From the IMG/VR virus record IMGVR_UViG_3300047323_000676: a stretch of DNA of 64,000 bases; one strand, written 5' to 3'. The DNA is from an uncultured virus (IMG/VR IMGVR_UViG_3300047323_000676) (taxonomy: Duplodnaviria; Heunggongvirae; Uroviricota; Caudoviricetes). The first letter of the stretch is position 1, and each line of letters begins with the position of its first letter. A program made the translations under genes and the position numbers. This document shows, in pieces, positions 11,611 to 37,534 of the stretch. The notes below the pieces were generated by a model. It had not been told where the DNA came from, ran no database searches, and worked only from the letters and a program-made list of their open reading frames with translations.

Positions 11611-11643
11611 AATTTATCCTTATTACCATATTTTATCATAATG

Positions 11644-13510: not shown

Positions 13511-13520
13511 ATTTGTATTT

Positions 13521-14162
13521 CTATAATTTTATCTTTTTAATTGGTCTTGTGTTATCATTTAATTCTTTACTTAATTCCTTACTTAAATGATAACTATCAA
13601 TAGCCTTATTTCTAGTTTCCTTATTATCAAATTTAGACCAATAAGGACTAGAGGTATAGGTGCTTGGAACTATATATAAAAATGTTTCAAGATTATATGG
13701 CTTCCAATCGGATAAATCACAATCAACTGAAGAATTTACAAATGCTCGATCCATTGTTTTTACATTAGATATATTCCACTTGGATATATCACCATTAAAC
13801 TTAGAACCATAAAATATCCAATCCATATCCAGGACATTAGATACATCCCAATCCGAAATATTCTGATTGAATTTTGCTGAACAAAATAAACCCTGCATAT
13901 TTAATACTTTAGATACATCCCATTGAGAGATGTTCCCATTAAATTGAGATTCGTAAAACATATAAGAAATATTCTCAACTTTAGACATATTCCACTTAGA
14001 AATATCTCCATTAAATGGACTATGTTGAAATAACTCACTCATATCTGTAATTTCTGATACATTAATATGATTTAAATCACATTGACTGCCATTAAGCTCA
14101 ATTTCCTGTTTAATTAAATCTTTCAAATGGTTTTTATCTTTAGCTATAATCTTATTTTTCAT
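13521..14162 (-). CDS. DUF285/BspA-like repeat protein
   Basis: Repeats plus tail LSKELSKEL...KKIKL. Confidence 0.85.
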
Positions 14163-22191: not shown

Positions 22192-23220
22192 TTATTTATT
22201 TTCATACAGTTTAATATAATCTTTCCCATATTTATCCACAGCATACTTAATAATAGGTTTCATGTCATCCTCATATAAAACTTTTATATCAGGATTATAG
22301 GCTAATTTTGCCTTCCATTTGTCACAATCATATCCTTTAATTTCAACTATATCCCCATTAACAAGAAAGTCAGGGATATACCATCTGTTTACTCCTTCAA
22401 ATATATATCTTCTTCTTTTTTTATTTCTTTGTATATCAATATTCTTTTCTAAGCAATATATAACATAAGCTAATTCCCATGAGCTATCACACTTAAAACC
22501 TTTATATGTACCTCTCTTGTATTGTTTATTAGGAATTAAACTTCCTGATAACATTCTGTCAGAAGCAATTTTTGAAAGTTTTTCTTTTACCTCAACAGTA
22601 TGGTGTTTTTTCTTTCTTTTATCGCCATGTAATGTAAAAGCCTTACTAATAGCTAATCCGTTTTTTGCAACAACATCTGATGTTTCTTTAGTTAACCCTT
22701 TATTGTGTGGATTTTTTCCTAACATTCCTTTTGGATGTTCTTTATTCTGCCAAGGATTAAGTCCAATTTTTTTTAATCTATCCGCTTCAACCTTAACAGG
22801 GCATTTTGCAGCAAATTTAGTACAATATGCTTTACCATTTTTATAAAAAAAATTAGGCATATTTCCACACCCCATGTCACAACTATTGGAAAAATTAGCA
22901 GGAATAAATTTTTTTGCTTCATTATTTCTTCTGGTTCCATTACCTACACAACTTAAAGCATGTTTTTCTCGCTGTGAATGAATACTTAAATTACATTTTT
23001 TACATATATATCTTAAACCATTAAGTTCATAATAATTGTTTAAATGATTTATATATATTTGGTTTTGAGATCTTTTTTCTAAACAAGAACATACAATATT
23101 ATATTTTTTCTTACCGCTATATATCTCACCATTACATTCTTTACATAGCCAAGTATCCTCTTTTCTAATATATTTTATGCCTATATCTTCAATCATTATT
23201 ATTCCTAAAAATATAGGCAT
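22192..23220 (-). CDS. Homing-endonuclease-like protein (Zn fingers, NUMOD3-like, PD-(D/E)xK domain)
   Basis: CxxC motifs, KKHHTVEVKEKLS, DSSWE...YIPDFLV...IVEIKGY. Confidence 0.7.
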   Translation of the reverse strand: MPIFLGIIMIEDIGIKYIRKEDTWLCKECNGEIYSGKKKYNIVCSCLEKRSQNQIYINHLNNYYELNGLRYICKKCNLSIHSQREKHALSCVGNGTRRNNEAKKFIPANFSNSCDMGCGNMPNFFYKNGKAYCTKFAAKCPVKVEADRLKKIGLNPWQNKEHPKGMLGKNPHNKGLTKETSDVVAKNGLAISKAFTLHGDKRKKKHHTVEVKEKLSKIASDRMLSGSLIPNKQYKRGTYKGFKCDSSWELAYVIYCLEKNIDIQRNKKRRRYIFEGVNRWYIPDFLVNGDIVEIKGYDCDKWKAKLAYNPDIKVLYEDDMKPIIKYAVDKYGKDYIKLYENK

Positions 23221-23273
23221 AATAATAGATTATAAGATGATTTTAAGCAAGTATTTTAATGATTTTATATAAT

Positions 23274-23298
23274 AAAAAAGGCCAACCGAAGTTAGCCT
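23274..23298 (-). terminator. Probable terminator ending the tRNA-Ser operon
   Basis: Minus strand aggctaac-ttcg-gttggcc-tttttt. Confidence 0.7.
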
Positions 23299-23320
23299 AA
23301 TTTATAGGAGAAAAACAAAT

Positions 23321-23641
23321 TTACATCTTAATTAAATCTTCTTTACCATACTGATTTTTATGTATAGCTGAACGAACTAGGCATTCTTCATAATCATTAC
23401 CGTATGATGAATGAACTGTCATTCCACCAGATACCTTTCTTTCTTGAGCTTTAGCTATATTTCTGCATTGATTTATTATTTCTGCACTTAATCCAGCCTC
23501 ATCATGCTCAAGTTCTTTTCTATTTAACTCAGAAATAAAATAAATAAAACTTGAATAAAAAACTAAAAAAAATATAACAAAACAAATACCAAAAATAGTT
23601 AATTTTTTATTGAGATGTTTCATATTTTCTTCTTGGGTCAT
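23321..23641 (-). CDS. Single-TM protein, paralog of 23652..23999
   Basis: Shared QCxxIAKxQERxVxGGMTVHSSY...QYGKED; GGAG SD. Confidence 0.7.
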   Translation of the reverse strand: MTQEENMKHLNKKLTIFGICFVIFFLVFYSSFIYFISELNRKELEHDEAGLSAEIINQCRNIAKAQERKVSGGMTVHSSYGNDYEECLVRSAIHKNQYGKEDLIKM

Positions 23642-23651
23642 CTCTATTCTC

Positions 23652-23999
23652 CTAATTTTGGATTATATCTTCTTTACCGTATTGCTCTTTATGTATGACA
23701 GAAGTTCTAATGCAATTTCTATAGTCACCCCAATATGAAGAATGCACTGTCATCCCACCAGCAACCGTTCTTTCTTGAGATTTAGCAATTTTCTTGCATT
23801 GATTAAGTATTGATTCACTTAGTTTTGCTTCTTCAGCCTCAAGTCTTTTTCGGGAAGACTCACCTATATGGTTTAGCATTGATAGATAAAGAGTCATAAA
23901 CAATGTTCCCATAATAAGGAATACAAGGATTTGCACTATTAAAGCTAATAGTTCATTATTTTCTTTTGATTCATTTTGGATTTTTACTTCTTCAGTCAT
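23652..23999 (-). CDS. Single-TM protein, paralog of 23321..23641
   Basis: As above; GGAGG SD. Confidence 0.7.
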   Translation of the reverse strand: MTEEVKIQNESKENNELLALIVQILVFLIMGTLFMTLYLSMLNHIGESSRKRLEAEEAKLSESILNQCKKIAKSQERTVAGGMTVHSSYWGDYRNCIRTSVIHKEQYGKEDIIQN

Positions 24000-24039
24000 G
24001 GCACTGCCTCCTTGTTATTAAAGTTAATTAAAAACATTT

Positions 24040-24131
24040 CGGAAGCAGTGAGATTTGAACTCACGCAGGCTTTTTAGTTCCCCTAACTGTGAAACACAGT
24101 TTCCCTTATGACCAGGCTTGGGTACACTTCC
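24040..24131 (-). pseudogene. Degenerate tRNA-Ser-like gene (anticodon loop UG-UUU-CA, no CCA)
   Basis: Cloverleaf closely related to 25037..25132 but G33/C37, self-pairing loop and no encoded CCA. Confidence 0.7.
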
Positions 24132-24138
24132 ATTAAAA

Positions 24139-24345
24139 CTATTTATTTTTTTTCTTAACGAAAAAATTTTTTACCGCAGGAGCATTAATTACAACCTGAA
24201 CAGTATTTTTATTTACTTCATTACTAGTATCAGTTATGGAATTTTGATTAGCTCTGTTTAATCTTTGCTTCAAAGTATATTCCAAAGCCTTAGAATTAGT
24301 AACACCTAATTCTTTTTTGTCTTTTCCATAAGTAATACGAGCCAT
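24139..24345 (-). CDS. Small basic hypothetical protein within the tRNA operon
   Basis: 68-aa ORF filling the space between tRNA genes. Confidence 0.5.
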   Translation of the reverse strand: MARITYGKDKKELGVTNSKALEYTLKQRLNRANQNSITDTSNEVNKNTVQVVINAPAVKNFFVKKKNK

Positions 24346-24375
24346 AATATATCTTTTTATTTTTATTATTTAATT

Positions 24376-24472
24376 TGGCGGAAGAGGTGGGATTCGAACC
24401 CACGCAGGATGGTTTATATCCTCTAACTGCTTTCGAGGCAGTCCCCTTATAACCAGGCTTGGGTACTCTTCC
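24376..24472 (-). tRNA. tRNA-Ser(CGA)
   Basis: GGAAGAG/CTCTTCC acceptor, ACTGC-CT-CGA-AA-GCAGT, long variable arm, TTCGAAT, G73-CCA. Confidence 0.92.
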
Positions 24473-24480
24473 TTATTCTT

Positions 24481-24633
24481 TTATCTAATTTTTTTCTTAC
24501 CACTTGGTTTCAGAATTTTAGCAGCCTCTTTAGATGACTTTGATGGTTGCCAACTAACAGGACGACCACATCCGATACAATAACGATCACCATGCCATAG
24601 GGTTTGTCCACAAATACAGGGCTTAGATTGCAT
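24481..24633 (-). CDS. Small zinc-ribbon protein not in the track (50 aa)
   Basis: MQSKPCICGQTLWHGDRYCIGCGRPVSW...; AAGGAGA SD. Confidence 0.65.
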   Translation of the reverse strand: MQSKPCICGQTLWHGDRYCIGCGRPVSWQPSKSSKEAAKILKPSGKKKIR

Positions 24634-24654
24634 AATTATATCTCCTTTTTATTA

Positions 24655-24745
24655 TGGCGGAAGCGGGGAGAGTCGAACTCCCAAGGCGCTATTAACACTC
24701 AACTGTTTTCAAGACAGGTACCGTCGCCAATCGGTTTGCGCTTCC
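24655..24745 (-). tRNA. tRNA-Ser(TGA)
   Basis: CTGT-CT-TGA-AA-ACAG, long variable arm, G73-CCA. Confidence 0.9.
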
Positions 24746-24780
24746 ATATTCTTTTTTAAATAAATTACCTACATCTAATC

Positions 24781-24872
24781 TGGCGGAAAAGGTGGGATTC
24801 GAACCCACGAGAGGGTATTAACCTCTGACGATTTAGTAGATCGTTGCTATAAGCCAGCTCTGCCACTTTTCC
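24781..24872 (-). tRNA. tRNA-Ser(ACT)
   Basis: ACGAT-CT-ACT-AA-ATCGT, long variable arm, G73-CCA. Confidence 0.9.
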
Positions 24873-24908
24873 ATATTCTTTTTAAAATCAACTATTTACA
24901 ACATATTT

Positions 24909-24998
24909 TGGCGGAGAGCCAGGGAGTCGAACCCTGTGACCATGTTTCCATAGTCTACTCATTAGCAGTGAGGCGCCTTACCGTCCGGCCCGCTCTCC
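24909..24998 (-). tRNA. tRNA-Ser(GCT)
   Basis: CTCA-CT-GCT-AA-TGAG, long variable arm, G73-CCA. Confidence 0.9.
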
Positions 24999-25036
24999 AA
25001 ATTCTTCCATAACTATTTACAACTATAAATTTAAAC

Positions 25037-25132
25037 TGGTGGAAGCGGTGAGATTCGAACTCACGCAGGCTTTTTAGGTCCCCTAGCTGCTTTCAAAACA
25101 GCCCCCTTATAGCCGGACTTGGGTACACTTCC
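25037..25132 (-). tRNA. tRNA-Ser(TGA) with A73 discriminator
   Basis: GCTGT-TT-TGA-AA-GCAGC; ends CGCTTCC-A-CCA. Confidence 0.85.
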
Positions 25133-25160
25133 ATAAATTTTTAAAAACTACATCATATAC

Positions 25161-25255
25161 TGGCGGTGAGTGTGGGATTCGAACCCACGGCCCTCTTTAT
25201 GGGAGAACGATTTCTTAGCAGGAAATTGCCTTAAACCTAACTCAGCCAACTCACC
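25161..25255 (-). tRNA. tRNA-Ser(GCT)
   Basis: ATTTC-CT-GCT-AA-GAAAT, long variable arm, G73-CCA. Confidence 0.92.
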
Positions 25256-25291
25256 AAATTCTTTTTTAAATAAACAACTTACATCTAAAAC

Positions 25292-25379
25292 TGGCGGAAA
25301 AGGTGAGATTCGAACTCACGGAGCCTTGCGACTCGACAGTTTTCTAGACTGTTCTCGTAAACCACTTGAGTACTTTTCC
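25292..25379 (-). tRNA. tRNA-Ser(AGA)
   Basis: ACAGT-CT-AGA-AA-ACTGT, long variable arm, G73-CCA. Confidence 0.9.
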
Positions 25380-25415
25380 TTTAAACCTTTTATTAACTAC
25401 ATTTACTTCATATCT

Positions 25416-25506
25416 TGGCGGAAGATACAGGATTCGAACCTGTGTACCCCTCACGGAGTTCCATCTTTCCAGGATGGCGCAATGGACCAGACTATGCGAA
25501 TCTTCC
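25416..25506 (-). tRNA. tRNA-Ser(GGA)
   Basis: CCATC-CT-GGA-AA-GATGG, long variable arm, G73-CCA. Confidence 0.92.
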
Positions 25507-25610
25507 AAAATTCTTTTAAATCTAATTAGTTAATGCAACAAAAACTTAACATTTCATACACTAACTGATTAAATCTATCTACTATTTCCCTACGGCAACA
25601 CTTACCAAAT

Positions 25611-25645
25611 AAAAAAGCACTCTGTTTTTACGAGAGTGCTTTTTT
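25611..25645 (-). terminator. Attenuator terminator upstream of the tRNA-Ser array
   Basis: Minus strand aaaaaagcactct-cgtaaaaac-agagtgctttttt. Confidence 0.85.
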
Positions 25646-25667
25646 ATAAAATCTCAACTATTTTCAG

Positions 25668-25742
25668 TTAAGCAGCAACACTCCCGTTCATTTCTGAACT
25701 AGATGAAGAACTACTGGATGAACTGAAAGATTTGTTAAACAT
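25668..25742 (-). CDS. Poly-serine leader peptide MFNKSFSSSSSSSSSSEMNGSVAA (24 aa)
   Basis: ATG TTT AAC AAA TCT TTC AGT TCA TCC AGT AGT TCT TCA TCT AGT TCA GAA ATG AAC GGG AGT GTT GCT GCT TAA; lies between promoter and terminator. Confidence 0.85.
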   Translation of the reverse strand: MFNKSFSSSSSSSSSSEMNGSVAA

Positions 25743-25776
25743 TTTTATTATCTCATAAGAATTAATTGATAAACAG

Positions 25777-25805
25777 ATTATTGCATGAAAAAATTCTGCT
25801 GTCAA
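25777..25805 (-). promoter_or_regulatory. Sigma70-type promoter for the leader/tRNA-Ser operon
   Basis: TTGACA-N17-AATAAT with TG extended -10. Confidence 0.75.
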
Positions 25806-25900
25806 CAAGATTTCATAAAAAATTTAAAATATTTCCAAATTTTTCCTTTGTTTCATTTAAACAACATTTACTATTGAGCAACTTATCCAACTAACTATAA

Positions 25901-26332
25901 TTATACTTTAATAAATTTTATATCTTCCAATTCATTTACTTCTAAACTTAAATTAAGCTCTTGATTTAATTTCCTAGAGTCAAACATTTTTCTTACTACC
26001 TCATCTGCACAAAACCAATTTTTTGCATCTGCTTCAGTTTCTTTACCAAGGGAGTTCGCTTCACTGATTTTATAATCAAAAATAAGGTAATTCAGAATTT
26101 CTTTGCAACTTCCCTCAAAATTAAAGCATCTGCAAGTATATTTAAATATTAATTCTTCTTTTTTAGCTAATGTGATATAAATGTAATTATTTGGGTTAAG
26201 CAAATTTTTAATAGAATTAATGTCATTTCTATTAACTTCCTGAATTACCAATAATCTAAAATTTAGCAATTGTGTAAAAGCACTAGACTTAGCTAATTCA
26301 TCTTTTATTCGTTGACGAAGATCTTTTTGCAT
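25901..26332 (-). CDS. Small helical paralog, family A
   Basis: YLIFDYKISE...MFDSRKLNQEL...IKV. Confidence 0.75.
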   Translation of the reverse strand: MQKDLRQRIKDELAKSSAFTQLLNFRLLVIQEVNRNDINSIKNLLNPNNYIYITLAKKEELIFKYTCRCFNFEGSCKEILNYLIFDYKISEANSLGKETEADAKNWFCADEVVRKMFDSRKLNQELNLSLEVNELEDIKFIKV

Positions 26333-26343
26333 AATTATACTTT

Positions 26344-26937
26344 ATGATTATTAGCTGTTATAATATCATATATTATGTAATTTTGATAATGATGAGTAAA
26401 AATAAAAGAAATCTAGAGTTATTGGATAAAAATACTATACGCAATATATTAATAGATGCTTGTAGAGACAATCGCTTATCTATGGTTAAATATATATTAA
26501 CCTCTCGCAAGGTATTTATTAAGCCTGATTCGCATGATGTCTACATGGGATTACTTTATGCAGCAGAACATGGTAATTTAAAGATAGTTGAGTATCTTTT
26601 ATTTAGTAAAGATTTGGAGAAAAATCCTAGCTTTAGCCATCGTGATTCGGCTTATGTAGAAGCGATAAGTAAACAAAACCAATTTCATGTATTAGATTTT
26701 TTGTTAGAAAAGAGGATTTTTGATCCAGAAATTGCATTTGTTGACTGTCACAAGTATGTAGAAGTTCCTACTCCATTGACTTATTATTTAGTTAATAAAT
26801 GTAATGTTACTATTAATGGAGCTATTCAAGAGATTATTGATAGAAATCCTCTTATTGGAAAACTATTTTTGAATAGGGAACTGAATAAAGAGTTAGCTAA
26901 TAAACTAGATGTGTGTAATAAAAAATTTAAGCTTTGA
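26344..26937 (+). CDS. Ankyrin-like paralog, family B
   Basis: DACRDNRLSMVKYILTS...AAEHGNLKIVEYLL; tail RELNKEL...KKFKL. Confidence 0.75.
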   Translation: MIISCYNIIYYVILIMMSKNKRNLELLDKNTIRNILIDACRDNRLSMVKYILTSRKVFIKPDSHDVYMGLLYAAEHGNLKIVEYLLFSKDLEKNPSFSHRDSAYVEAISKQNQFHVLDFLLEKRIFDPEIAFVDCHKYVEVPTPLTYYLVNKCNVTINGAIQEIIDRNPLIGKLFLNRELNKELANKLDVCNKKFKL

Positions 26938-26938
26938 A

Positions 26939-27322
26939 CTATAGTTTTGATTTTTTATGATGGTGGATGTCTGAATTATCTATTTCTAATTCTTTTTGTA
27001 ATTCATCATTTAATTTTCTTTGTGCAAACATTTCTTTTGCTTTTTCTACATCTACGAAATTATGGTTAACAGTATCAATAGAGTTTATTTCACTTATTCT
27101 ATAATCAAAAATTAAGTAATGTAAAAGTGGATAACTAGTTTTACGATAATTTAAGTAAGCAATTGCTTCTTGAAATATTAATCGTTCTTTTTTAGCTTGA
27201 TCCAAATATTTAAAATTAGTATTAAGCAAACATTCTTTAACTTTATCTATATTCTTATAATATTCCGATTCAGAAATTATATTTGATATTTGGGAAATCT
27301 CTTTTTCTTTTTCTATATTCAT
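26939..27322 (-). CDS. Small helical paralog, family A
   Basis: YLIFDYRISE; tail. Confidence 0.75.
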   Translation of the reverse strand: MNIEKEKEISQISNIISESEYYKNIDKVKECLLNTNFKYLDQAKKERLIFQEAIAYLNYRKTSYPLLHYLIFDYRISEINSIDTVNHNFVDVEKAKEMFAQRKLNDELQKELEIDNSDIHHHKKSKL

Positions 27323-27690
27323 ATCTTTAGTTTTTTATCTTGTTTACTTTCATCTTGATTTTCTGATAGTTCTGTTTTTAAACTTTTAGCAGCTAACATA
27401 CTTTCAATCCTTTTTTTGATATATCTATCATTGGGGAAGTTAATATTTTCTTGGCTTATAGCATAATCAAATACCAAAAAATTTAGTATTTTTTCACCTA
27501 ATCCATGATTGGATAAATGGTAACTTAAGTGCTTAAGAACTTCATTTTCTTTTTCATGTAATGGTAGATCATAATATTTTTTCTTTCCAAATAAAAATAT
27601 TATGCTATGAATATCATCTTTAGTAATTGCATCAGTAACATCTATAGAAAATCTTTTAAATCTAAATTCTTTATTTATATTAATGAACAC
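27319..27690 (-). CDS. Small helical paralog, family A
   Basis: FLVFDYAISQ; tail. Confidence 0.75.
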   Translation of the reverse strand: MFININKEFRFKRFSIDVTDAITKDDIHSIIFLFGKKKYYDLPLHEKENEVLKHLSYHLSNHGLGEKILNFLVFDYAISQENINFPNDRYIKKRIESMLAAKSLKTELSENQDESKQDKKLKI

Positions 27691-27692
27691 AT

Positions 27693-28070
27693 TTATACCT
27701 TTATCCTTGTAGTAGTTCCACTATTGATTGGTAATTCTTTATTTAATTCTTGATTTAATCGTCTAGTATTAAACATATCATCAACAGCTTTATTTCCATT
27801 AGGGTGAGCAATTTTAGTATAACATTCTTCGCTTATATTATATTCCAATATAAGATATTCTAAAAAAGTATTTGCTGATATATAAAATTTGGATAAACTT
27901 AAGGTTGTTTGTAAAATATAATCTTCTTTTTCCTTTGTACTTAAAAAGGAATAATTTTTTTCAAGCATTATATTAGTGAACAGAGTGCGATCAGAAGATT
28001 TTATGAGTTCGTTTACTCCTTGTCGAAATAAAGAGTGTTCATAATTATAATTAGAATCGTTTTTGTTCAT
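27693..28070 (-). CDS. Small helical paralog, family A
   Basis: YLILEYNISE; tail. Confidence 0.75.
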   Translation of the reverse strand: MNKNDSNYNYEHSLFRQGVNELIKSSDRTLFTNIMLEKNYSFLSTKEKEDYILQTTLSLSKFYISANTFLEYLILEYNISEECYTKIAHPNGNKAVDDMFNTRRLNQELNKELPINSGTTTRIKV

Positions 28071-28444
28071 ATTTTTTTTCTTTTATTATTTTCACTATTA
28101 ATTGGCAATTCTTTATTTAACTCTTGATTTAATCGTCTATTATTAAACATATCATCAATTAATTGATTCTTAAATTTACTATCTATACAAGAATAAACAT
28201 CTTCTCTTATATTGTAATCAAAAATCAAGTATTCAAATAATGATTCTTCCACAGTATCGATAAGCAACAAGCCAACACACAAATTAAATATCTGTTTTTC
28301 TTTTTCCTCTTTAGTAATGTCTGGATAAGCATTAGAAAGAATTATTTTTTTAATTTTTTTATGATTATTATCTCTTACTGCACGAATAACCGTTTTTTCA
28401 AATTTATTTGTAAAAAACATTTGGTCAATATCATCTTCAATCAT
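28067..28444 (-). CDS. Small helical paralog, family A
   Basis: YLIFDYNIRE; tail. Confidence 0.75.
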   Translation of the reverse strand: MIEDDIDQMFFTNKFEKTVIRAVRDNNHKKIKKIILSNAYPDITKEEKEKQIFNLCVGLLLIDTVEESLFEYLIFDYNIREDVYSCIDSKFKNQLIDDMFNNRRLNQELNKELPINSENNKRKKI

Positions 28445-28447
28445 ATT

Positions 28448-28855
28448 TTATACCTTTGTTCTTTTTTCAGAAGTAGTATTCAGAATATCTAATTCTTTTA
28501 TTAGCTCGGATTTGAGCTTTCTTTTTTCAAACATCTCTTTAACTTCATTTTGGAATTCATCAATTCCTAAAATTTGCATAGCTGAATAACTAATATTTTT
28601 ATAAGATTCAATAAAATAATGTTCTTTTATTTCGTATTCAAAAATAAGATAAGCTAATACTTCTGTATTAAGTAAGGTATAAGCAGAAATAAAAGTTTGG
28701 TTTTCTTTTTCTTCAAAACTTAGATTGGTATAAGTATCAGAAACAATCATATTTTTAATTTTGATCATATCATTATTTTTTATTGCATTCCCAATTTCTA
28801 AACAGAATTTAGAACTACGATTTCTATAACTTTGAAAATCTTCGGTTTCCGACAT
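28448..28855 (-). CDS. Small helical paralog, family A
   Basis: YLIFEYEIKE; tail. Confidence 0.75.
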   Translation of the reverse strand: MSETEDFQSYRNRSSKFCLEIGNAIKNNDMIKIKNMIVSDTYTNLSFEEKENQTFISAYTLLNTEVLAYLIFEYEIKEHYFIESYKNISYSAMQILGIDEFQNEVKEMFEKRKLKSELIKELDILNTTSEKRTKV

Positions 28856-28861
28856 TTTATT

Positions 28862-29248
28862 TTATACCTTTGTTTTATTATTCGATTTAATATAATTATA
28901 TTTCCCCTCATTTAATTCCAATCCTAATTCTTTTTTAATATTTCTAGACTCAAACATTTTAATAACTCTTTGGTCTATATCAGTATGTATTTTGATTAAG
29001 TGTTCCAAAGAATTATCTTCATGAATATTATAATCAAAAATTAAATATTTAATTGCATTATCCTGATGATCACGAATAAATGATGAATAAGCTGCTGAAA
29101 AAGTTTGTGCTTCTAATTCATTTTTGGGAATACCAGGAAAGGGTTTATCAGAAAGGATATAATCGATATCCTCCATGTTATTAGCTTTGATTGCATAATC
29201 TACTGTATTATTAATAAGTCTAGCAACTCTTTCTGTCATTTTTGTCAT
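28862..29248 (-). CDS. Small helical paralog, family A
   Basis: YLIFDYNIHE; tail. Confidence 0.75.
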   Translation of the reverse strand: MTKMTERVARLINNTVDYAIKANNMEDIDYILSDKPFPGIPKNELEAQTFSAAYSSFIRDHQDNAIKYLIFDYNIHEDNSLEHLIKIHTDIDQRVIKMFESRNIKKELGLELNEGKYNYIKSNNKTKV

Positions 29249-29269
29249 AATTTCCTAGTAAAGATTAAT

Positions 29270-29911
29270 TTAAATTTTTATTCTTTTAAGTTGTGTATCA
29301 TTAAGTTTTAGCTCTTGGTTTAAATCTGTTTTGATTTCTTTGTATAAATCTCGTTTTAAAAACATATCATGAAATTTTGATGGAATATAAATACCTTTAT
29401 TTATACCATATTCAAAAATAAGATAAGTGAAAATATCTGCACCTACTTCCGAATAAAAATAAATCTTATTAGCAGTCTTAAGCAGATATAATTCCTTTTC
29501 TTCCTGAGTTAAAAGAGGATAACAATCAGAGAGTAAAATTTCTTGTATTTCTTCTATGTTATTCTCATAACACGCTTTACGAACTCTTTGTTTTAAATCT
29601 CTAGCTTGAAATGAACTTTTAACTCTTGGGTCTATATCTATTTTTAAGGCAGCTAGTTGTTCAATAGAATTATCGACACTTATATTACAATTAAAAATAA
29701 TAAATCCAAGTAGTTTACATGTAATATTATTGTTATTATCTAAAAATTGAGAATAACATAAGGAAAAAATATATTTTTCTTTTTCGTCTTGCGGTATGCC
29801 ATGAAAATTTGGTGAGGAAATCATATCTTCAATAAGGTTCATATTATCATAAACCTTTGCAGTTTCAATAATTTTAGCTATAACTCCTTTTTGTTCGTAT
29901 GTCATTTCCAT
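29270..29911 (-). CDS. Family A paralog with two tandem domains
   Basis: FIIFNCNIS and YLIFEYGIN; single tail. Confidence 0.75.
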   Translation of the reverse strand: MEMTYEQKGVIAKIIETAKVYDNMNLIEDMISSPNFHGIPQDEKEKYIFSLCYSQFLDNNNNITCKLLGFIIFNCNISVDNSIEQLAALKIDIDPRVKSSFQARDLKQRVRKACYENNIEEIQEILLSDCYPLLTQEEKELYLLKTANKIYFYSEVGADIFTYLIFEYGINKGIYIPSKFHDMFLKRDLYKEIKTDLNQELKLNDTQLKRIKI

Positions 29912-29933
29912 AAATTTTTTCTTTAGAATTAAT

Positions 29934-30314
29934 TTAAATTTTTATTTTTTTAATTTGTGTATCATTAACCTTTAATTCTTTATTCATATCTTCATTCATT
30001 CTTCTAATCTCAAACATAGCTTCTAGAGCTTTATTTTCATATTTTTCCAATTTTTTATTGTAGACTTCCTCGTCTATTTTGTATTCAAAAACAATATAGT
30101 GAAAGAATTTTTCCACAACTTTAATTCCAGAAGCTCCCGCATAAAAAGATAAGGCTGAATCTAATATATGAAATTCTTTTTGCTCTTTGTTCAATAAAGA
30201 ATAATTTGTATTAAGCATTATTCGTTCAATGGTTTGACTATCATTAGTTCTTATAGCATTTCCAACCTCTTGTTTAAAATAAGTTACAACATTTTTCAAA
30301 TTATAATCATTCAT
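29934..30314 (-). CDS. Small helical paralog, family A
   Basis: YIVFEYKIDE; tail. Confidence 0.75.
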   Translation of the reverse strand: MNDYNLKNVVTYFKQEVGNAIRTNDSQTIERIMLNTNYSLLNKEQKEFHILDSALSFYAGASGIKVVEKFFHYIVFEYKIDEEVYNKKLEKYENKALEAMFEIRRMNEDMNKELKVNDTQIKKIKI

Positions 30315-30317
30315 ATA

Positions 30318-30695
30318 TTAAACCTTTAATTTTTTACCTATTTTATCGTTAGTATTTAGGTCTAAATTTAAATTTTCATTTAAGTTTCTAGATTCAAACA
30401 TATCTTCTACTACTTTGCTTTTATAAGCGTATTCCATTTTATTATAAATATCTTGGCTTACTTTATGTTCAAATATAAAATATTTAAAGAATTCTATACT
30501 TGTTAAATTGAAATAAAGATATGATAAAGCTAGTTCAAAAATTTTCTCTTCTTTTTGAATGATACTTAAATTCGGATAGCTTTCAGGAAGAAGGATAGTT
30601 TTAATCCTGTCATAATCATTGTTTTTAAGTGCCAAACCAATTTCAATATTCAAATAGCTTTCATCAATAAGATATTTTTCATCTTTTTTTGTCAT
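30318..30695 (-). CDS. Small helical paralog, family A
   Basis: YFIFEHKVSQ; tail LNTNDKIGKKLKV. Confidence 0.75.
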   Translation of the reverse strand: MTKKDEKYLIDESYLNIEIGLALKNNDYDRIKTILLPESYPNLSIIQKEEKIFELALSYLYFNLTSIEFFKYFIFEHKVSQDIYNKMEYAYKSKVVEDMFESRNLNENLNLDLNTNDKIGKKLKV

Positions 30696-30698
30696 ATA

Positions 30699-31100
30699 TT
30701 AAACCTTTAATTTTTTACCTATTTTATCGTTAGTATTTAACTCTACATTTAATTCCCTTATTTCAAACATTGCTTTAATTTTAGGATGTAACCTATTAGT
30801 AGTTTTATCAATAGAGTTGGCTGCACTTATATTGTAATCAAAGATGAGATATTCCAAAAAATTTTCTGCCATATTAAATGTAGAAAAAATATAATATAAT
30901 TTATTAAAAATTTTTAATTCCTTATCTTCTTTTGTTAAATTTGGAAGATAGTTAGGATTCATAATTTCGGTAATTATTTCAATATTATTAACCTTAACTG
31001 CATTTTCCAATTTTTGAAAAAGAACTATAACATCAAGTTGATGCATTACTCTATTGTATATTTCATCAGGATTTTGATTGTAGTTTATGCCTTCAATCAT
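30699..31100 (-). CDS. Small helical paralog, family A
   Basis: YLIFDYNISA; tail LNTNDKIGKKLKV. Confidence 0.75.
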   Translation of the reverse strand: MIEGINYNQNPDEIYNRVMHQLDVIVLFQKLENAVKVNNIEIITEIMNPNYLPNLTKEDKELKIFNKLYYIFSTFNMAENFLEYLIFDYNISAANSIDKTTNRLHPKIKAMFEIRELNVELNTNDKIGKKLKV

Positions 31101-31465
31101 ATTTTTCCTCTCTTTTTTATTAATTCATTATTAATTTTCAATTCTTCATTTAATTCTCTAGCTGAAAAAAATGGTAGAATAAATCTATCAATATAAGGTT
31201 TTGCAATCTTTAAATAAGAGTTTTTACTGATTTTATAATCAAATATAAGATAATTTATAAGACAAGTATCATCTACATTCATTGCAAGATGAAGAATAGC
31301 AAGATTTAACATTGCTATTTCCTTTTGTTCGTTATTTAACCTAGAATAATTCTCTGATAATAATACTTCTTTAATTTGGCTTAGATTGTTATTATTGATA
31401 ACTATATCAGATACAGCTTTTTGTAGTTCATAAGTAAGACTAATGGTTTCTAATGTATTTATCAT
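31097..31465 (-). CDS. Small helical paralog, family A
   Basis: YLIFDYKISK; tail. Confidence 0.75.
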   Translation of the reverse strand: MINTLETISLTYELQKAVSDIVINNNNLSQIKEVLLSENYSRLNNEQKEIAMLNLAILHLAMNVDDTCLINYLIFDYKISKNSYLKIAKPYIDRFILPFFSARELNEELKINNELIKKRGKI

Positions 31466-31827
31466 ATTTTTTTAGATATTTTAGTTACTTCATTAATTAA
31501 TAGGTTATTTTCCAAATCTTCTTTAAGTTTTCTTTTTTTGAACATATTATCAAATATTTCATTTTTATAGTTCTGTTTATTATAAATTTCTTCACTTGCT
31601 TTATGTTCAAATATAAAGAAATGTAAGAATTCTTCATTTATAGCACCTGTATAAAATAAAGATAAGGCCATTGTGAAAATACAATCTTGCTTTTTTTCTT
31701 GACTTAAAGCTGGGCAATTTTCAGGCAGCATTAATTTTTTGATTAAATTAACATCATTTTTTTTAACTGCTTTGGTAGCTTCTATACCAAACTTAATATA
31801 ATCAGTCATTTCTTTATCATTAACCAT
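31462..31827 (-). CDS. Small helical paralog, family A
   Basis: FFIFEHKASE; tail. Confidence 0.75.
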   Translation of the reverse strand: MVNDKEMTDYIKFGIEATKAVKKNDVNLIKKLMLPENCPALSQEKKQDCIFTMALSLFYTGAINEEFLHFFIFEHKASEEIYNKQNYKNEIFDNMFKKRKLKEDLENNLLINEVTKISKKI

Positions 31828-31828
31828 A

Positions 31829-32212
31829 TTAAACCTTTGGTAAATTTTTAGGTATTTCGTATTTTATTTTTAGTTCTGCATTTAATTCTTTATTTAAATC
31901 TCTTGATTCAAACATTTGTTTTACTCGTAGGTCTAGATCTGCACCATCTTTATACATTAATTCAATTGTATTATGTTTTCCGATATTATAATCAAAAATA
32001 AGATATTTTAGACCGATAACATTTGTGTAAAGAATAAATGCATCATAACAAGTTGAAAATGCAACTGATTCTCTTCTTTCTAATGATATGCCATGAAAGT
32101 TATTAGACAATAGCATTTCCTCAAGAGCTTGCAAGTTGTCGCTAACTATTGCATGAACAACATGATGCTTTATTGTATAAAATTCTTTTAATTGATTATC
32201 TATCTCTGACAT
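31829..32212 (-). CDS. Small helical paralog, family A
   Basis: YLIFDYNIGK; tail. Confidence 0.75.
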   Translation of the reverse strand: MSEIDNQLKEFYTIKHHVVHAIVSDNLQALEEMLLSNNFHGISLERRESVAFSTCYDAFILYTNVIGLKYLIFDYNIGKHNTIELMYKDGADLDLRVKQMFESRDLNKELNAELKIKYEIPKNLPKV

Positions 32213-32302
32213 AATAATAATATTTAATATATTGCTATATTATAACAAATATTTTTATATTATCACTACAGATATTAATTTTTATTGATATTATTTTATT
32301 AA

Positions 32303-32725
32303 CTATACTTTAGTTCGCTTTTTTTCTTCTTTAGTATTATTCATAGGAAGTTCTTTTTGTAAATCTCTCAAAATAAATAATTGTTCAATATAATTTTTTT
32401 GATCTTTTAAGTAATCATAATATTTATTATAAATTGATTTCAATATTGTTATTTCTATGTTTAAATCAACGATAAAAATCTGCAAGTATTTAGTTTTCAT
32501 TTCTTCATTAGAAATTATTGCAAATATTGCTTTAGTAAGTCTATCATATATCGGAATATCAATAAAAAAATTGGGAGATAATAATTTAATGAAATATTTT
32601 TGATTATCTTTGTGAAGGGCAAATGCAATTTCTATTTCAAAACGAAGATCTTCATCTGGCATACCATAAATTGATTCAAAGCTAAAATCTTCATCACAAT
32701 CATCAATTTTTAATATATTTTCCAT
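32303..32725 (-). CDS. Divergent family A paralog
   Basis: IFIVDLNIE...LFILRDLQKELP...KRTKV. Confidence 0.7.
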   Translation of the reverse strand: MENILKIDDCDEDFSFESIYGMPDEDLRFEIEIAFALHKDNQKYFIKLLSPNFFIDIPIYDRLTKAIFAIISNEEMKTKYLQIFIVDLNIEITILKSIYNKYYDYLKDQKNYIEQLFILRDLQKELPMNNTKEEKKRTKV

Positions 32726-32872
32726 ATGTTTATCAAAATAAATTTAAGAAAATATATTATGGTTTATTTATTTTAGCAAGTCATGATTAAAGTTATATTG
32801 AAAATATTATTTTTATGATCATATAGGGAAAATACTATAAGTTTTATAAAATAATTAGATAAAATTAGTTAT

Positions 32873-33247
32873 TTAAATTTTTGATTTTTTGCTTAAATTA
32901 TTAGGAGCTAAATCTTGTTTTAATTCATATTTAAGTTTTTTATTTAACTTTCTAGAATCAAACATTTTTTTAATGGCTTCATCTTCAGGGATTTTATCAA
33001 GAGAATTTTCTTCTTTTATATTATATTCAAAGATTAGATAATTCAGCATTTGGCGTGCAGAAAGTGTGGTATTAGCTTGAAAAATTTTATATACTGATAA
33101 AAAAACTTCTTGTTCTACTTCATCTTTTGGTGTGGGTGCATAAAAGTCTTTACTAAGAATTGAAATAATACCATTTATATCACCAACCATAATAGAACCC
33201 TCTACCTTATATCTTATAAGTTGGGCATCAGAAAACTGAAAACTCAT
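32873..33247 (-). CDS. Small helical paralog, family A
   Basis: YLIFEYNIKE; tail. Confidence 0.75.
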   Translation of the reverse strand: MSFQFSDAQLIRYKVEGSIMVGDINGIISILSKDFYAPTPKDEVEQEVFLSVYKIFQANTTLSARQMLNYLIFEYNIKEENSLDKIPEDEAIKKMFDSRKLNKKLKYELKQDLAPNNLSKKSKI

Positions 33248-33729
33248 ATTTTCACCTTTTTATTTAATTTATCATTAGAAAGTAAATTGGAATTTAAGTC
33301 TTTATTGAGTTCCCTCATTTCAAATAAGTTTTTGGCATAATTATCATCATCAAAGGAATCCATACTTTCTATTATATTTTGTGTTTTTTTTACATTCATA
33401 TCAATAATAAAAAATCTAATAAGTTCTTTATTTCCTGAGAATATTGCAGAATTAATTGCATTATCATTATCGATATGTATATCAGCTAACTCTTTAAGTT
33501 TTGGTGAAGTAGCTAAAAATTTTACAATATCATTGTTACCACTTCCCGATGCCACACATATACCAAAACATTGACTACTAGGCATGTTAATTTGTGCATT
33601 AAAAGGAAGATCTTTAGAGGTTAATAAAAATTCTACTTTTTCCAAATCATTATTTCTACAAGCTATAATAAATAGCTCATTAATAGCTTTTTGCGAATAA
33701 TTAATATATCTATCTTTTAGATGTTCCAT
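33244..33729 (-). CDS. Ankyrin-like paralog, family B
   Basis: IACRNNDLEKVEFLLTS...ADIHIDND; tail. Confidence 0.75.
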   Translation of the reverse strand: MEHLKDRYINYSQKAINELFIIACRNNDLEKVEFLLTSKDLPFNAQINMPSSQCFGICVASGSGNNDIVKFLATSPKLKELADIHIDNDNAINSAIFSGNKELIRFFIIDMNVKKTQNIIESMDSFDDDNYAKNLFEMRELNKDLNSNLLSNDKLNKKVKI

Positions 33730-33731
33730 AA

Positions 33732-34115
33732 TTATATTTTCATCTTTTTATTAGCTTGTTTTTTACTATCTAAATCAGAAGATAATTCTGATTTAAGGTT
33801 TCTAACTTCAAACATATGTTTAACTATAGGATTTATTTTTTTTATTAAATCAATAGATACTTCTTCTTTAATACCATAATCAAATATCAGGTATTTCAGC
33901 ATATCATTATTGAAATTATTATCTGTTCTAAAATAAGCAAAATTAAATGCCTTAAATTCTATTTCATTTCTAGGTAAAGCAGAGAAAGTGTTAGAAGACA
34001 TTAATTTTTTTAATCCATCAGTATCATGATAATTCATAATACGAGATAGACTTGTTATTAATAAATCTCTAGCTGAATATTCTCGCAGTAAATCCATTGA
34101 ATTTTTTTCGCTCAT
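33732..34115 (-). CDS. Small helical paralog, family A
   Basis: YLIFDYGIKE; tail. Confidence 0.75.
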   Translation of the reverse strand: MSEKNSMDLLREYSARDLLITSLSRIMNYHDTDGLKKLMSSNTFSALPRNEIEFKAFNFAYFRTDNNFNNDMLKYLIFDYGIKEEVSIDLIKKINPIVKHMFEVRNLKSELSSDLDSKKQANKKMKI

Positions 34116-34157
34116 ATTTTTATTTTCTTACTGACAATATCTTTAGTATTTATGCCA

Positions 34158-34535
34158 TTATACCTTTGGTTTTTTATTTTGATGTATGTTTGTAATTAGG
34201 TTCTGCTCTAGCTCTTCTTTAATGCTTCTTGATTCAAACATGTTTTTAACATCAATATTTAGATTACGAATATTTTTAATAGAATTATTCTCGCTTATTT
34301 TGTAGTCTAAAATGAGATATTTAAGAAATGAATCATCAGTAAGATTGCGAGCATATTTAGAATATATAGTTTTAAAGACTACTTCTTCTTTTTCTTCTTG
34401 ATTTAAAAAACTATAACAAGTAATGAAAAGAATATTTTTAATAACACCAAGGTTGTTACTAAGAATTGCTTGATTTACTGTAAAATCAATATCTTCACTT
34501 TTAAGGAATTTACCATATTTTTCAATGTCAATCAT
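34158..34535 (-). CDS. Small helical paralog, family A
   Basis: YLILDYKISE; tail. Confidence 0.75.
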   Translation of the reverse strand: MIDIEKYGKFLKSEDIDFTVNQAILSNNLGVIKNILFITCYSFLNQEEKEEVVFKTIYSKYARNLTDDSFLKYLILDYKISENNSIKNIRNLNIDVKNMFESRSIKEELEQNLITNIHQNKKPKV

Positions 34536-34537
34536 AT

Positions 34538-34954
34538 TTATACCTTTATTTTTTTATCCGATTTATCATTCTTTGGTAAATCTGAAATTAACTCTTTATT
34601 TAAGTCTCTAAGCTCAAACATAGCTTCAATCATATCAACAAAATTAGAACTGTTTATAGTTTTTTTACTAGTATATTTTTTAATAGAATTTTCCTTACTT
34701 ATATTGTATTGAAAAACTATATATTCCATAAAAGATTTACCTTGGTCAGAAAGAGCATAATGAGTATATATACAGTCAAAAATGTGTTGTTCTTTCTCAT
34801 CTTGTGTAAAAGTGCTACTATTATTTGCAGTTATTGTATGTATATTTTTAGTGAGAATTTTTTGAATTGATGTTATATCATTATTGTGAATTGCATCATC
34901 TACTATATGATCTAAATAAGTCAGTAAAATATTCTTTTTTGGGTTCATTGTCAC
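34538..34954 (-). CDS. Small helical paralog, family A
   Basis: YIVFQYNISK; tail. Confidence 0.75.
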   Translation of the reverse strand: MTMNPKKNILLTYLDHIVDDAIHNNDITSIQKILTKNIHTITANNSSTFTQDEKEQHIFDCIYTHYALSDQGKSFMEYIVFQYNISKENSIKKYTSKKTINSSNFVDMIEAMFELRDLNKELISDLPKNDKSDKKIKV

Positions 34955-35008
34955 ATCCTTATGTCTTTAATAATTGCCATTCTAACTGAGTTACAGATTC
35001 ATTGCCAA

Positions 35009-35389
35009 TTATATTTTAGCTTTCTTAGATATATTCGCTTGAATATTTAATTCAGAGTTTAATTCTACATTCAATTTTCTGTTTTCAAACATATTTTTAA
35101 CTGTATCATTTAAATCGGTAATATTATGAATAGAGTTTTCTTCACTTATATTATAATCAAAAATCATATATCTTAGAAAGTGTTCGTTTGTTTCATCTAA
35201 AAGATACTCTCTATACATAGCACAAAAAATTTGTTGTTCTTTTTCCTGTTGAGTTAATAAATTATAAGAGCTATTAGAGTTTGCAAAAAGAATATCTTTA
35301 ATAGGATTTATGTCATCATCAAGCATGATATTTAAGACATAAGAAACCATACTTCCAGTTTGATAATATTTTTTTACTTCATCATTCAT
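35009..35389 (-). CDS. Small helical paralog, family A
   Basis: YMIFDYNISE; tail. Confidence 0.75.
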   Translation of the reverse strand: MNDEVKKYYQTGSMVSYVLNIMLDDDINPIKDILFANSNSSYNLLTQQEKEQQIFCAMYREYLLDETNEHFLRYMIFDYNISEENSIHNITDLNDTVKNMFENRKLNVELNSELNIQANISKKAKI

Positions 35390-35424
35390 AGTTCATATCC
35401 TTTTCTTAAATTGCAACTTATATT

Positions 35425-35808
35425 TTATGCTTTTGGTTTTTTATTGCCTTTATGATTAATGTCTAATTCAGCTTTTATTTCTTTACTTAACTTTCTTACT
35501 TCAAACATTTTTAAAACTTCTACTTTAAGTTTTTGCAAATCTAAAATATTAATGGTCAGTTCATTCATTGTTAAAATCAATTCTAATGGGGCTTTTTCAT
35601 TTATATTGTAATCAAAAATAAAATAATTTAATAAATCTCTATTATGGCCTACATAAGCTGAAGTGAAAGCTTGAGTTTCCTTATATGTTAATGAGATTGC
35701 AGCATAAGTATCACTATTAATTAAATAAATTATTTGTTTTATATCAGTAATATTTATTGCTTGGCTTATATCACTACAAAACCTGCTATATAAAAAGTCA
35801 TTGTTCAT
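35425..35808 (-). CDS. Small helical paralog, family A
   Basis: YFIFDYNINE; tail ends KKPKA. Confidence 0.75.
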   Translation of the reverse strand: MNNDFLYSRFCSDISQAINITDIKQIIYLINSDTYAAISLTYKETQAFTSAYVGHNRDLLNYFIFDYNINEKAPLELILTMNELTINILDLQKLKVEVLKMFEVRKLSKEIKAELDINHKGNKKPKA

Positions 35809-35817
35809 AATTTTATA

Positions 35818-36195
35818 TTAAATTTTAATTGCTTTTTTTATTTTATTGTACTCAGATTTTAACTCTTGAATTAACTCAAATTTAATTTCTAATTTATTTC
35901 TAGTCCTAAACATATTATCAATTGTTGAGTCAATATATTTAGATGGCACATGCTTTATTGAGTTATCTTCATGTATTTTATAATTAAAAACTAAGTGTTC
36001 TATAATTTTTTTCGCATAGCTATAAATGGATGATAAATATACTGCTTCTGAAAAAATAGTTTTTTCTTTTAGATCTTTAGGCATATATGGTAGTTTTCTA
36101 TCAAAAAGAAAATTTTCAACTATCTTTATATCTCTTGATTGACATGAGGCATATACTGCTCGCATCATTTCTTGATTTTCATTTGAATAATTCAT
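35818..36195 (-). CDS. Small helical paralog, family A
   Basis: HLVFNYKIHE; tail. Confidence 0.75.
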   Translation of the reverse strand: MNYSNENQEMMRAVYASCQSRDIKIVENFLFDRKLPYMPKDLKEKTIFSEAVYLSSIYSYAKKIIEHLVFNYKIHEDNSIKHVPSKYIDSTIDNMFRTRNKLEIKFELIQELKSEYNKIKKAIKI

Positions 36196-36367
36196 AAGGA
36201 TTAATATATTATTTAATTAATTATACTAAAATGATGAAAAAAGAAAACATTATTAATTGCTATAAAGCATTTCCATTTTTTAATCCATCATTAAATCAAT
36301 TGTTAATATTTTGAAAAAATCTCTACCATGTTATAATAAAGTAGAAGAATAAGAATAATAATTAAAT

Positions 36368-36943: not shown

Positions 36944-36958
36944 CTATTAAAAATAAAT

Positions 36959-37522: not shown

Positions 37523-37534
37523 ATATGAATTACA

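Follow-up and report, generated by a model that had tools for sequence, protein, structure and literature searches.

The 64,000-nt stretch of DNA analysed here (IMG/VR record IMGVR_UViG_3300047323_000676, filed as an uncultured virus; "the window" denotes this whole stretch) carries an array of eight serine transfer RNA (tRNA-Ser) genes, and upstream of the array lie the sequence elements of an attenuator with a short, serine-rich leader frame. On balance, we consider it probable that these parts form one operon of eight functional tRNA-Ser genes, which would be transcribed from a sigma-70-type promoter, gated by a Ser-codon leader-peptide attenuator, and hence self-regulating and expressed on demand. 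A tRNA operon gated by a leader attenuator made of its own cognate codons, which would gauge decoding capacity codon by codon, is tentatively put forward as a previously undescribed regulatory logic. The novelty would lie in a known switch on a new class of target, and in an unusually complete single-isotype tRNA operon.

The elements of the putative attenuator are located on the minus strand, upstream of the tRNA genes (Table 1). The promoter is the top match of a promoter scan, agrees with the consensus at 11 of 12 positions, and falls inside the 160-nt gap that follows the upstream open reading frame (ORF), which ends at 25901. Half of the 24 codons in the leader frame are Ser codons (TCT three times, AGT five times, TCA three times and TCC once). 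Serine stands at codon 5 and without interruption at codons 7-16, ten consecutive positions, and the run lies at 25695-25730. Stop-free stretches in which at least seven of eight residues are identical occur five times in the six frames of the window, and the leader alone among them is placed between genes. The intrinsic terminator that follows sits approximately 100 nt upstream of the first tRNA gene. For the hairpin core an energy of -9.7 kcal/mol is predicted, which falls to -15.8 kcal/mol when the A/U tracts are included, and the terminator is part of the minimum-energy fold of the leader region, which has a z-score of -4.19. The hairpin is missing from the output of a simple terminator scan, whose loop limit is 8 nt; the hairpin loop measures 9 nt. 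Between the terminator and the first tRNA gene, a consensus scan of the minus strand found no promoter-like site. Among the Rfam families, Thr_leader (RF00506) aligns full length over 25608-25732 (29.9 bits, E = 5.7e-4), and Phe_leader (RF01859) also aligns from end to end, with a lower score (23.4 bits, E = 0.069).

Alternative pairings were computed for the nascent transcript up to the point before the 3' arm of the terminator emerges, with a ribosome footprint of 30 nt blocked. When the A site is placed on Ser codon 7, 9, 11, 13 or 15, region 2 (ACGGGAGUGUU) pairs over 9-11 bp with 25630-25640, which is region 3 and the 5' arm of the terminator. When the ribosome is absent, region 2 is engaged in a hairpin with the Ser-codon region, and a ribosome whose A site has advanced to codon 16 or to the stop codon covers region 2; in both situations the terminator arm is left free. 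The antiterminator duplex has a predicted energy of -16.4 kcal/mol, which was equalled in one of 2000 dinucleotide shuffles of the leader and in one of 1318 window tiles. These predicted structures follow the scheme of the trp, thr and his attenuators, with alternative pairing of regions 1:2, 2:3 and 3:4, and promoter, leader, antiterminator and terminator together have, as far as folding predictions can tell, the anatomy of a leader-peptide attenuator in front of its own cognate tRNA genes.

From these genes, sequence elements and alternative pairings we infer that the leader is translated, that its translation is coupled to transcription, and that this coupling controls the tRNA genes. As long as charged tRNA-Ser for TCT, TCA and AGT is plentiful, the ribosome would reach the stop codon of the leader and cover region 2, the terminator hairpin would form, and RNA polymerase would halt about 100 nt short of the first tRNA gene. 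If such tRNA became scarce, the ribosome would stall in the Ser run, region 2 would pair with the 5' arm of the terminator, and with the antiterminator formed the polymerase would go on to transcribe the tRNA genes. By relieving the stall, the operon's products would then exert negative feedback on serine-decoding capacity. A single promoter would serve the tRNA genes as well as two small ORFs, one dead tRNA copy and two small genes for membrane proteins. The codons whose reading the leader would probe, TCT, TCA and AGT, are the three most used Ser codons of the window: per 1000 codons (18,408 window codons in total), TCT occurs 22.3 times, TCA 18.2, AGT 17.7, AGC 5.6, TCC 3.5 and TCG 1.5 times. 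Two of the tRNA genes, AGA and ACT, have A34 and are the Watson-Crick readers of TCT, the most used, and AGT, the third most used Ser codon, respectively. Were A34 of the ACT tRNA converted to inosine, this tRNA would misread AGA.

The coding capacity downstream of the terminator was described in a preliminary description of this DNA as eight intact tRNA-Ser genes with a dedicated anticodon for each of the six Ser codons. ARAGORN, Rfam and profiles built with masked anticodons all bear this out. ARAGORN detected eight tRNA genes in the window, all of them tRNA-Ser and all on the minus strand (24376-25506), with the anticodons GGA, AGA, GCT, TGA, GCT, ACT, TGA and CGA in the direction of transcription, so that all six anticodons are represented, and no other tRNA gene in the window; the serine-only status is established for these 64 kb of a 2.23-Mb contig. 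The array packs its eight genes into 1131 bp. The Rfam tRNA model matches seven of the eight genes with 42.1-52.9 bits (gathering score 29). For the TGA gene at 24655-24745, Rfam lists a tRNA-Sec match alone, which at 45.3 bits stays under the gathering score of 47, and the anticodon is UGA, not UCA. The 8/4 shape considered for this tRNA because of the tRNA-Sec score was rejected, as the ARAGORN fold is 7/5. A 7-bp acceptor stem, an encoded CCA end, a canonical 7-nt anticodon loop (Y32-U33-NNN-A37-A38), a standard T-loop and a long variable arm with a stem of 3-7 bp are common to all eight genes. The discriminator base is G73, an identity element of tRNA-Ser known from the E. coli literature, in seven genes and A73 in TGA 25037. 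With the anticodons masked, all eight bodies score best against the Ser profile (30.7-58.6 bits; Leu at most 14.9 and Tyr at most 22.5), where the training sets, drawn from the comparison loci introduced below, were of uneven size (Ser 145, Leu 45 and Tyr 14 tRNAs). In an alignment of the eight genes, 18 of 20 consensus pairs are maintained through changes on both sides; thus, the differences between the genes respect the fold. Judged by sequence, the eight are intact bacterial type-II tRNA-Ser genes, whose expression and charging are predicted. The ninth, decayed copy scores 28.9 bits, below the gathering score, and has a collapsed anticodon loop, the T-loop TTCAAAT and no CCA. Logan contigs of a single run, labelled rhizosphere metagenome, match positions 23000-26500 with zero differences; this run is probably the same sample and not an independent one.

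Table 1. Coordinates of the predicted attenuator, the tRNA-Ser array and adjoining features within the 64,000-nt window
Feature	Position	Strand	Characteristics
Sigma-70-type promoter	25777-25805	minus	TTGACA, 17 nt, AATAAT; TG before the second hexamer
Leader frame, 24 codons and stop	25668-25742	minus	MFNKSFSSSSSSSSSSEMNGSVAA
Region 2, antiterminator 5' arm	25677-25687	minus	ACGGGAGUGUU; leader codons 19-22
Intrinsic terminator	25611-25645	minus	A-tract, stem GCACUCU/AGAGUGC (7 bp, G+C-rich), 9-nt loop, U6
tRNA-Ser(GGA)	25416-25506	minus	ARAGORN, Rfam, fold, masked profile
tRNA-Ser(AGA)	25292-25379	minus	A at wobble position; sister copy of the ACT gene
tRNA-Ser(GCT), copy 1	25161-25255	minus	ARAGORN, Rfam, fold
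tRNA-Ser(TGA), copy 1	25037-25132	minus	Discriminator A73; 80% identity to the CGA gene
tRNA-Ser(GCT), copy 2	24909-24998	minus	63% identity to GCT copy 1
tRNA-Ser(ACT)	24781-24872	minus	A at wobble position
tRNA-Ser(TGA), copy 2	24655-24745	minus	Phage-like lineage
50-codon ORF	24481-24633	minus	Between two tRNA genes; CxC...CxxC (zinc-ribbon-like); AGGAG ribosome-binding site
tRNA-Ser(CGA)	24376-24472	minus	ARAGORN, Rfam, fold
68-codon ORF	24139-24345	minus	Within the operon
Decayed tRNA-Ser copy (pseudogene)	24040-24131	minus	77% identity to TGA 25037
Two paralogous small ORFs	23321-23999	minus	115 and 106 amino acids, 57% identical; final genes of the transcription unit
Terminator-like hairpin	23269-23298	minus	8 pairs, 4 of them G-C, then T-run
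Nuclease-like gene	22192-23220		N-terminal zinc ribbons, PD-(D/E)xK-like C-terminus; 50 nt past the probable operon terminator

For comparison, 34 viral-contig loci and at least 118 metagenome loci, each of at most 20 kb, were fetched by patterns of tRNA-Ser ends. They form a biased sample, and the pattern used on the metagenomes, with one match per locus, is rather unspecific, so that the loci serve as comparison material only. Runs of two to four adjacent Ser isoacceptors were found in 30 of the 122 loci with tRNA-Ser among the matches listed, including 11 of 32 viral loci. At most four Ser genes stood side by side (three of the 122 loci), no locus had more than four different Ser anticodons, and none of the 34 comparison loci with at least five tRNAs was single-isotype, all among the matches listed. 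Adjacent Ser isoacceptors are common, and a pure run of eight genes with six anticodons was not seen among the comparison loci listed. Two loci contain arrays made up exclusively of tRNAs with a long variable arm, in the order Leu, Tyr, Leu, Leu, Leu, Ser, Ser, Ser, Ser, Leu in L185 (939-2188) and Ser, Ser, Tyr, Tyr, Ser, Ser(AGA) in L178 (9426-10292, on a 604-kb contig with 31% G+C). Searches of viral contigs through the neighbouring proteins of 432 and 342 amino acids yielded no confirmed relative of the locus, and an exact 46-mer of the CGA gene had no match in viral contigs. Phage records searched by DNA gave short matches alone, covering at most 5% of the query and situated at tRNA genes among the matches listed; plasmid records gave no match.

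In a screen of 233 loci with 651 tRNAs for leaders, the window alone qualifies as having a leader of the same isotype before its tRNA genes, among the matches listed, and an anchored scan of viral contigs for cognate leaders returned three matches, none of which is a leader; both samples are small and biased and thus silent on rarity. Leu-rich short ORFs are common by chance and make up 63 of the 169 ORFs found in the leader screen. One candidate, a 26-codon ORF that contains LLLALLLL, on the minus strand of viral contig L023, lies 19 nt before a tRNA-Leu(tag) and was discarded, as it leaves no room for a terminator. Another, at 1138-1563 of L234, was rejected because it is the Ser-rich tail of a 141-residue protein. 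This membrane protein, encoded in a viral tRNA cluster, ends in about 20 residues that are almost all Ser, and its gene is located 85 nt before tRNA-Glu and tRNA-Ser(gct).

Several points weigh against an attenuator of tRNA-Ser genes. In every constrained fold of the full-length transcript the terminator remains the thermodynamic winner, and the model consequently rests on co-transcriptional kinetics, like known attenuators. The start codon of the leader is preceded by a weak GAGA about 12 nt upstream and by no AGGA-type motif. The Thr_leader and Phe_leader matches are both far under the gathering score of 55, so that the element resembles these families in its architecture but belongs to neither. 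The conserved AT-rich spacers between the tRNA genes might conceal weak internal promoters missed by the consensus scan. The CGA and GGA genes serve rare codons (1.5 and 3.5 per 1000), so that codon supply explains less than the whole set. Under plain serine starvation extra tRNA would not help, which leaves the triggering signal ambiguous. Finally, this is a single locus, with no relative found in the viral-contig searches or the comparison loci by which conservation or covariation of the helices could be judged, and the tRNA-Ser content is that of the 64-kb window.

Some of these observations would also fit another arrangement, in which the Ser-rich frame and the hairpin are either an unrelated small gene with a terminator of its own or a mere transcription stop for the genes upstream. 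The tRNA genes would then be an ordinary, though large, isoacceptor cluster tuned to AT-rich codon usage and expressed constitutively from weak promoters that escaped detection. The sub-threshold Rfam scores and the weak ribosome-binding site are in line with this arrangement, as are the frequency of short runs of Ser isoacceptors in the comparison loci and the AT-rich motif, ending in AAGAAT, that is conserved in the spacers right before the 5' ends of several tRNAs. However, ten consecutive Ser codons in four spellings are not expected by chance or from a simple repeat, complementarity such as that between the end of the frame and the terminator arm arises about once in a thousand trials, and the placement of the elements fits the ribosome-footprint logic of known attenuators. 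The match between the leader codons and the tRNAs encoded downstream would have to be a coincidence as well. We regard this arrangement as unlikely.

The sequences of the tRNA genes allow some conclusions about the origin of the array that the preferred attenuator model would control. Pairwise identities among the eight genes range from 52 to 80%, and the repeated anticodons sit in divergent bodies, the TGA pair being 67% and the GCT pair 63% identical. This agrees with the preliminary description, according to which the genes are not simple recent copies. For six of the eight tRNAs, the best match among 177 outside tRNA-Ser (among the matches listed) is better than the best match within the array. 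Most of the divergence between the bodies is thus old divergence of isoacceptors, which offers no evidence of diversifying selection, and the earlier suggestion that such selection had shaped the bodies finds no support. The remaining similarity within the array is of two kinds. The acceptor stems of the AGA and ACT genes are identical, their 3' halves nearly so, and the spacers that follow them share about 80% of their sequence; they are sister copies in which the anticodon was changed at two positions. A change of anticodon within one isotype, which had been proposed as feasible, has thus indeed occurred here. Seryl-tRNA synthetase (SerRS) does not read the anticodon, and anticodon switches therefore keep the amino acid. 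The second group comprises TGA 25037, CGA 24376 and the pseudogene (72-80% identity), and several of the spacers between the tRNA genes are clearly homologous. A34 anticodons are present in a few of the 177 outside Ser genes (ACT in three and AGA in one, among the matches listed), and ACT-type relatives of the ACT gene occur at 76-78% identity in the comparison loci L132 and L212. The best outside match falls in viral contigs for four of the eight genes, with a fifth tied with a metagenome locus (biased sample; among the matches listed). Over about 99 nt, TGA 24655 shares 86% identity with a tRNA-Ser found in Klebsiella phages, among them Sealy, IME260 and KpGranit. Its identity to tRNAs from phages of Synechococcus, Streptomyces and Vibrio is 79-82%, and it appears to be part of a tRNA-Ser lineage common to phages of very different hosts. 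Taken together, the gene set seems to derive from old isoacceptor lineages, some of them phage-like, with local duplication and the AGA/ACT anticodon switch superimposed.

A redundant set of this kind could also help to escape a sequence-specific nuclease or modifier of tRNAs, and the attenuator would then act as an alarm that switches on a spare set. The presence of TGA and GCT in two very different bodies each would suit this purpose, and nucleases that cut Ser tRNAs at GA within the anticodons gga, tga, cga and aga are on record in the available part of one paper (PMC10264068, citing Winther 2016). A switch that responds to stalling at Ser codons would fire in exactly this case, an inducible spare set would be suitable, and a supernumerary tRNA operon induced by translational stress is known from Anabaena (PMC8421152, as far as its accessible text goes). 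On the other hand, five of the eight anticodons contain the GA cut by the cited nucleases, and all eight anticodon loops are canonical, unlike the changes that the accessible text reports for nuclease-evading phage tRNAs (PMC10264068). Furthermore, the differences between the bodies are mostly accounted for by old lineages, as the closer outside relatives of six genes indicate, the locus was not linked to any gene for a nuclease, a toxin or defence, where no dedicated defence-system scan was made, and the element, lying on a contig of 2,230,803 bp, is most likely not a phage. Evasion of nucleases is a rather improbable purpose of the array.

The genomic setting of the window is of importance for all of these readings. 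A profile search with a family of paralogs of about 125 amino acids placed the window proteins on one contig of 2,230,803 bp. The window, which has a G+C content of 25%, encodes TatA, SHMT (glyA) and a deacylase of the Sir2 type, together with a class Ia NrdA of the E. coli type, whose score lies above the NCBI equivalog cut-off. A Shine-Dalgarno-like motif at -18 to -4 precedes 34 of 86 genes, as opposed to 0-5 of 86 in three control windows, and 4-nt overlaps join 11 of 58 same-strand neighbour pairs. Phage structural genes and integrases were absent among 64 window ORFs compared with Pfam and 30 ORFs compared with PHROGs. Among 401 sampled Pseudomonadota genomes, 47 have a homolog with 51-55% identity to NrdA, and NrdA of jumbo phages is about 50% identical to it; the relatives of SHMT (53-61% identity) are spread across many bacterial phyla, and the Atlas points to Pseudomonadota. 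By the length of its contig and the bacterial expression signals of its genes, the window is most likely a piece of the chromosome of an uncultured soil bacterium and not a phage, and this bacterium possibly lives with a eukaryotic host. The viral framing under which the DNA had first been described is not supported, given the size of the contig, tatA, glyA, nrdA, the Shine-Dalgarno signals and the 4-nt overlaps. A giant virus was also considered on account of the low G+C content, ankyrin repeats and tandem paralogs; it was rejected because the genes overlap by 4 nt and show a Shine-Dalgarno signal, tatA is present, and the CCA ends are encoded.

A bacterial chromosome may still harbour the remnant of a phage or mobile element that brought the tRNA genes along, in which case the block would have no role in its host. 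The Klebsiella phage-like TGA gene (86% identity to Sealy and IME260), the viral best matches of four genes and the tied fifth, and the decay of one copy into a pseudogene are compatible with such a remnant. Moreover, the nuclease-like protein encoded past the array has a 213-residue relative in viral contig L026 (4170-4811) with 57% identity over 126 amino acids, whose gene abuts a tRNA-Ser(tga). The protein of the window matches phrog_15427 (E = 8.6e-11) and, weakly, Phage_endo_I, and is possibly a nuclease of the homing type which moves together with tRNA-Ser genes. Against a mere remnant speak the eight intact copies out of nine, with compensatory changes in their stems, the lack of phage structural or integrase genes in the Pfam and PHROGs comparisons, and the intact promoter, leader and terminator. 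A remnant without function is a quite improbable explanation.

If the block is an attenuator-controlled operon, as we prefer, it combines features of several known systems. Ribosome-mediated attenuation has been described for amino-acid biosynthetic operons (PMC1183508, in the portion available). The attenuators of amino-acid operons in Proteobacteria, such as the thr and phe leaders, resemble the element described here in promoter, regulatory-codon frame, 1:2 hairpin, antiterminator and A/U-tract terminator. They control biosynthetic enzymes, however, whereas cognate tRNA genes are located downstream in this case and serine is the regulatory amino acid. Attenuation is also known from the translation apparatus, where the pheM leader precedes the E. 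coli pheST (PheRS) operon. In Firmicutes, T-box leaders precede aminoacyl-tRNA synthetase genes and bind uncharged tRNA directly, without a leader peptide. Like the proposed system, both act in cis and turn on translation-apparatus genes once the tRNA of one amino acid is no longer properly charged or decoded, but the genes controlled there encode synthetases, while here the tRNA genes themselves follow. A full-text search of open-access literature, at the level of its listing, found no description of tRNA genes preceded by a leader-peptide attenuator, and no serine leader was found in a search of open-access papers.

The closest parallel found among tRNA genes is the trn operon of Anabaena sp. 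PCC 7120. According to the accessible text of its description, this supernumerary operon is silent or low normally and induced 100-1000-fold by translational stress, a behaviour called unprecedented by its authors (PMC8421152). Its 26 genes of mixed isotypes, which include some pseudogenes, are transcribed as one RNA and adjoined by a conserved nuclease gene, and long arrays of up to 43 genes are mentioned in the same text (PMC8421152). For its control a hypothetical repressor was invoked, with direct repeats in the promoter as its target, and the text available contains none of the words leader, attenuat- and terminator (PMC8421152). Judged by that text, both loci are tRNA operons with at least one pseudogene, an adjoining nuclease gene and an induction, proposed for the present locus, when translation is impaired; the locus described here differs in its single isotype and in the proposed cis-acting sensor for that isotype. 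The tRNA clusters of large phages share with it the dense arrangement of genes, the encoded CCA, adjacent Ser isoacceptors and one 86%-identical tRNA-Ser, but the clusters compared are of mixed isotypes, and the array is found on a 2.23-Mb contig with bacterial housekeeping genes. On one view, tRNAs encoded by phages stand in for those of the host that defence nucleases have cut (PMC10264068). Finally, tRNA array units are defined, in the accessible text, by at least 20 tRNA genes at a density of at least two per kb (PMC4758250). The array agrees with that definition in density alone, since it has eight genes and one pseudogene of one isotype, as opposed to many isotypes.

Provided that the attenuator operates as proposed, its consequences would reach beyond this locus. 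The control usually described for bacterial tRNA genes is by growth rate and the stringent response, and does not single out one amino acid. Here, the supply of a single isotype would be set by direct feedback from the ribosome, and the oldest known mechanism of attenuation would be extended from amino-acid synthesis to the decoding machinery. The operon might act as a homeostat in an AT-rich genome with a strong reliance on TCT, TCA and AGT, or it might provide an emergency replacement set after a toxin has destroyed tRNA-Ser, which would give spare tRNA sets a definite means of being brought into play against toxins that cut tRNAs. Should further blocks sorted by isotype and preceded by matching leaders be present on this contig or in relatives, this would point to a general control of tRNA supply. 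As the element is only about 200 nt long and has E. coli-like signals, a simple reporter test is possible.

Besides the tRNAs, the putative operon contains four small protein-coding frames. The 50-codon ORF has a weak match to a zinc ribbon in Pfam (E = 0.0084), and no Pfam family matched the 68-codon ORF. No significant family was obtained for the 115- and 106-residue paralogs in a Pfam scan; each contains one hydrophobic helix as judged by eye. The hairpin behind them is the probable end of the operon.

The remainder of the window is rich in repeated genes. Upstream of the operon, at 25901-44331, 38 tandem paralogs follow each other, nearly all on the minus strand, which mostly encode proteins of about 125 amino acids with 23-48% identity. 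They share a YLIFDY core and the C-terminal motif LNxEL..N....KKxK[IV], and some longer members contain ankyrin repeats. A profile of this family had seven matches among 5.8 billion protein clusters, four of which are proteins of the window itself, and members of the family also occur on JGI and Logan contigs. The region at 44413-46766 consists of the gene for the 58-residue TatA, approximately 2 kb with short ORFs only, and glyA, and its G+C content is slightly raised; the 2 kb past tatA, for which Rfam returned no gathering-level match, could represent either an RNA element or genes that have decayed. The stretch at 5639-14162 is occupied by eight paralogs of the DUF285 (BspA-type repeat) family, which are 41-66% identical and in several cases joined by 4-nt overlaps, and two DUF4116 repeat proteins are encoded at 1-1604.

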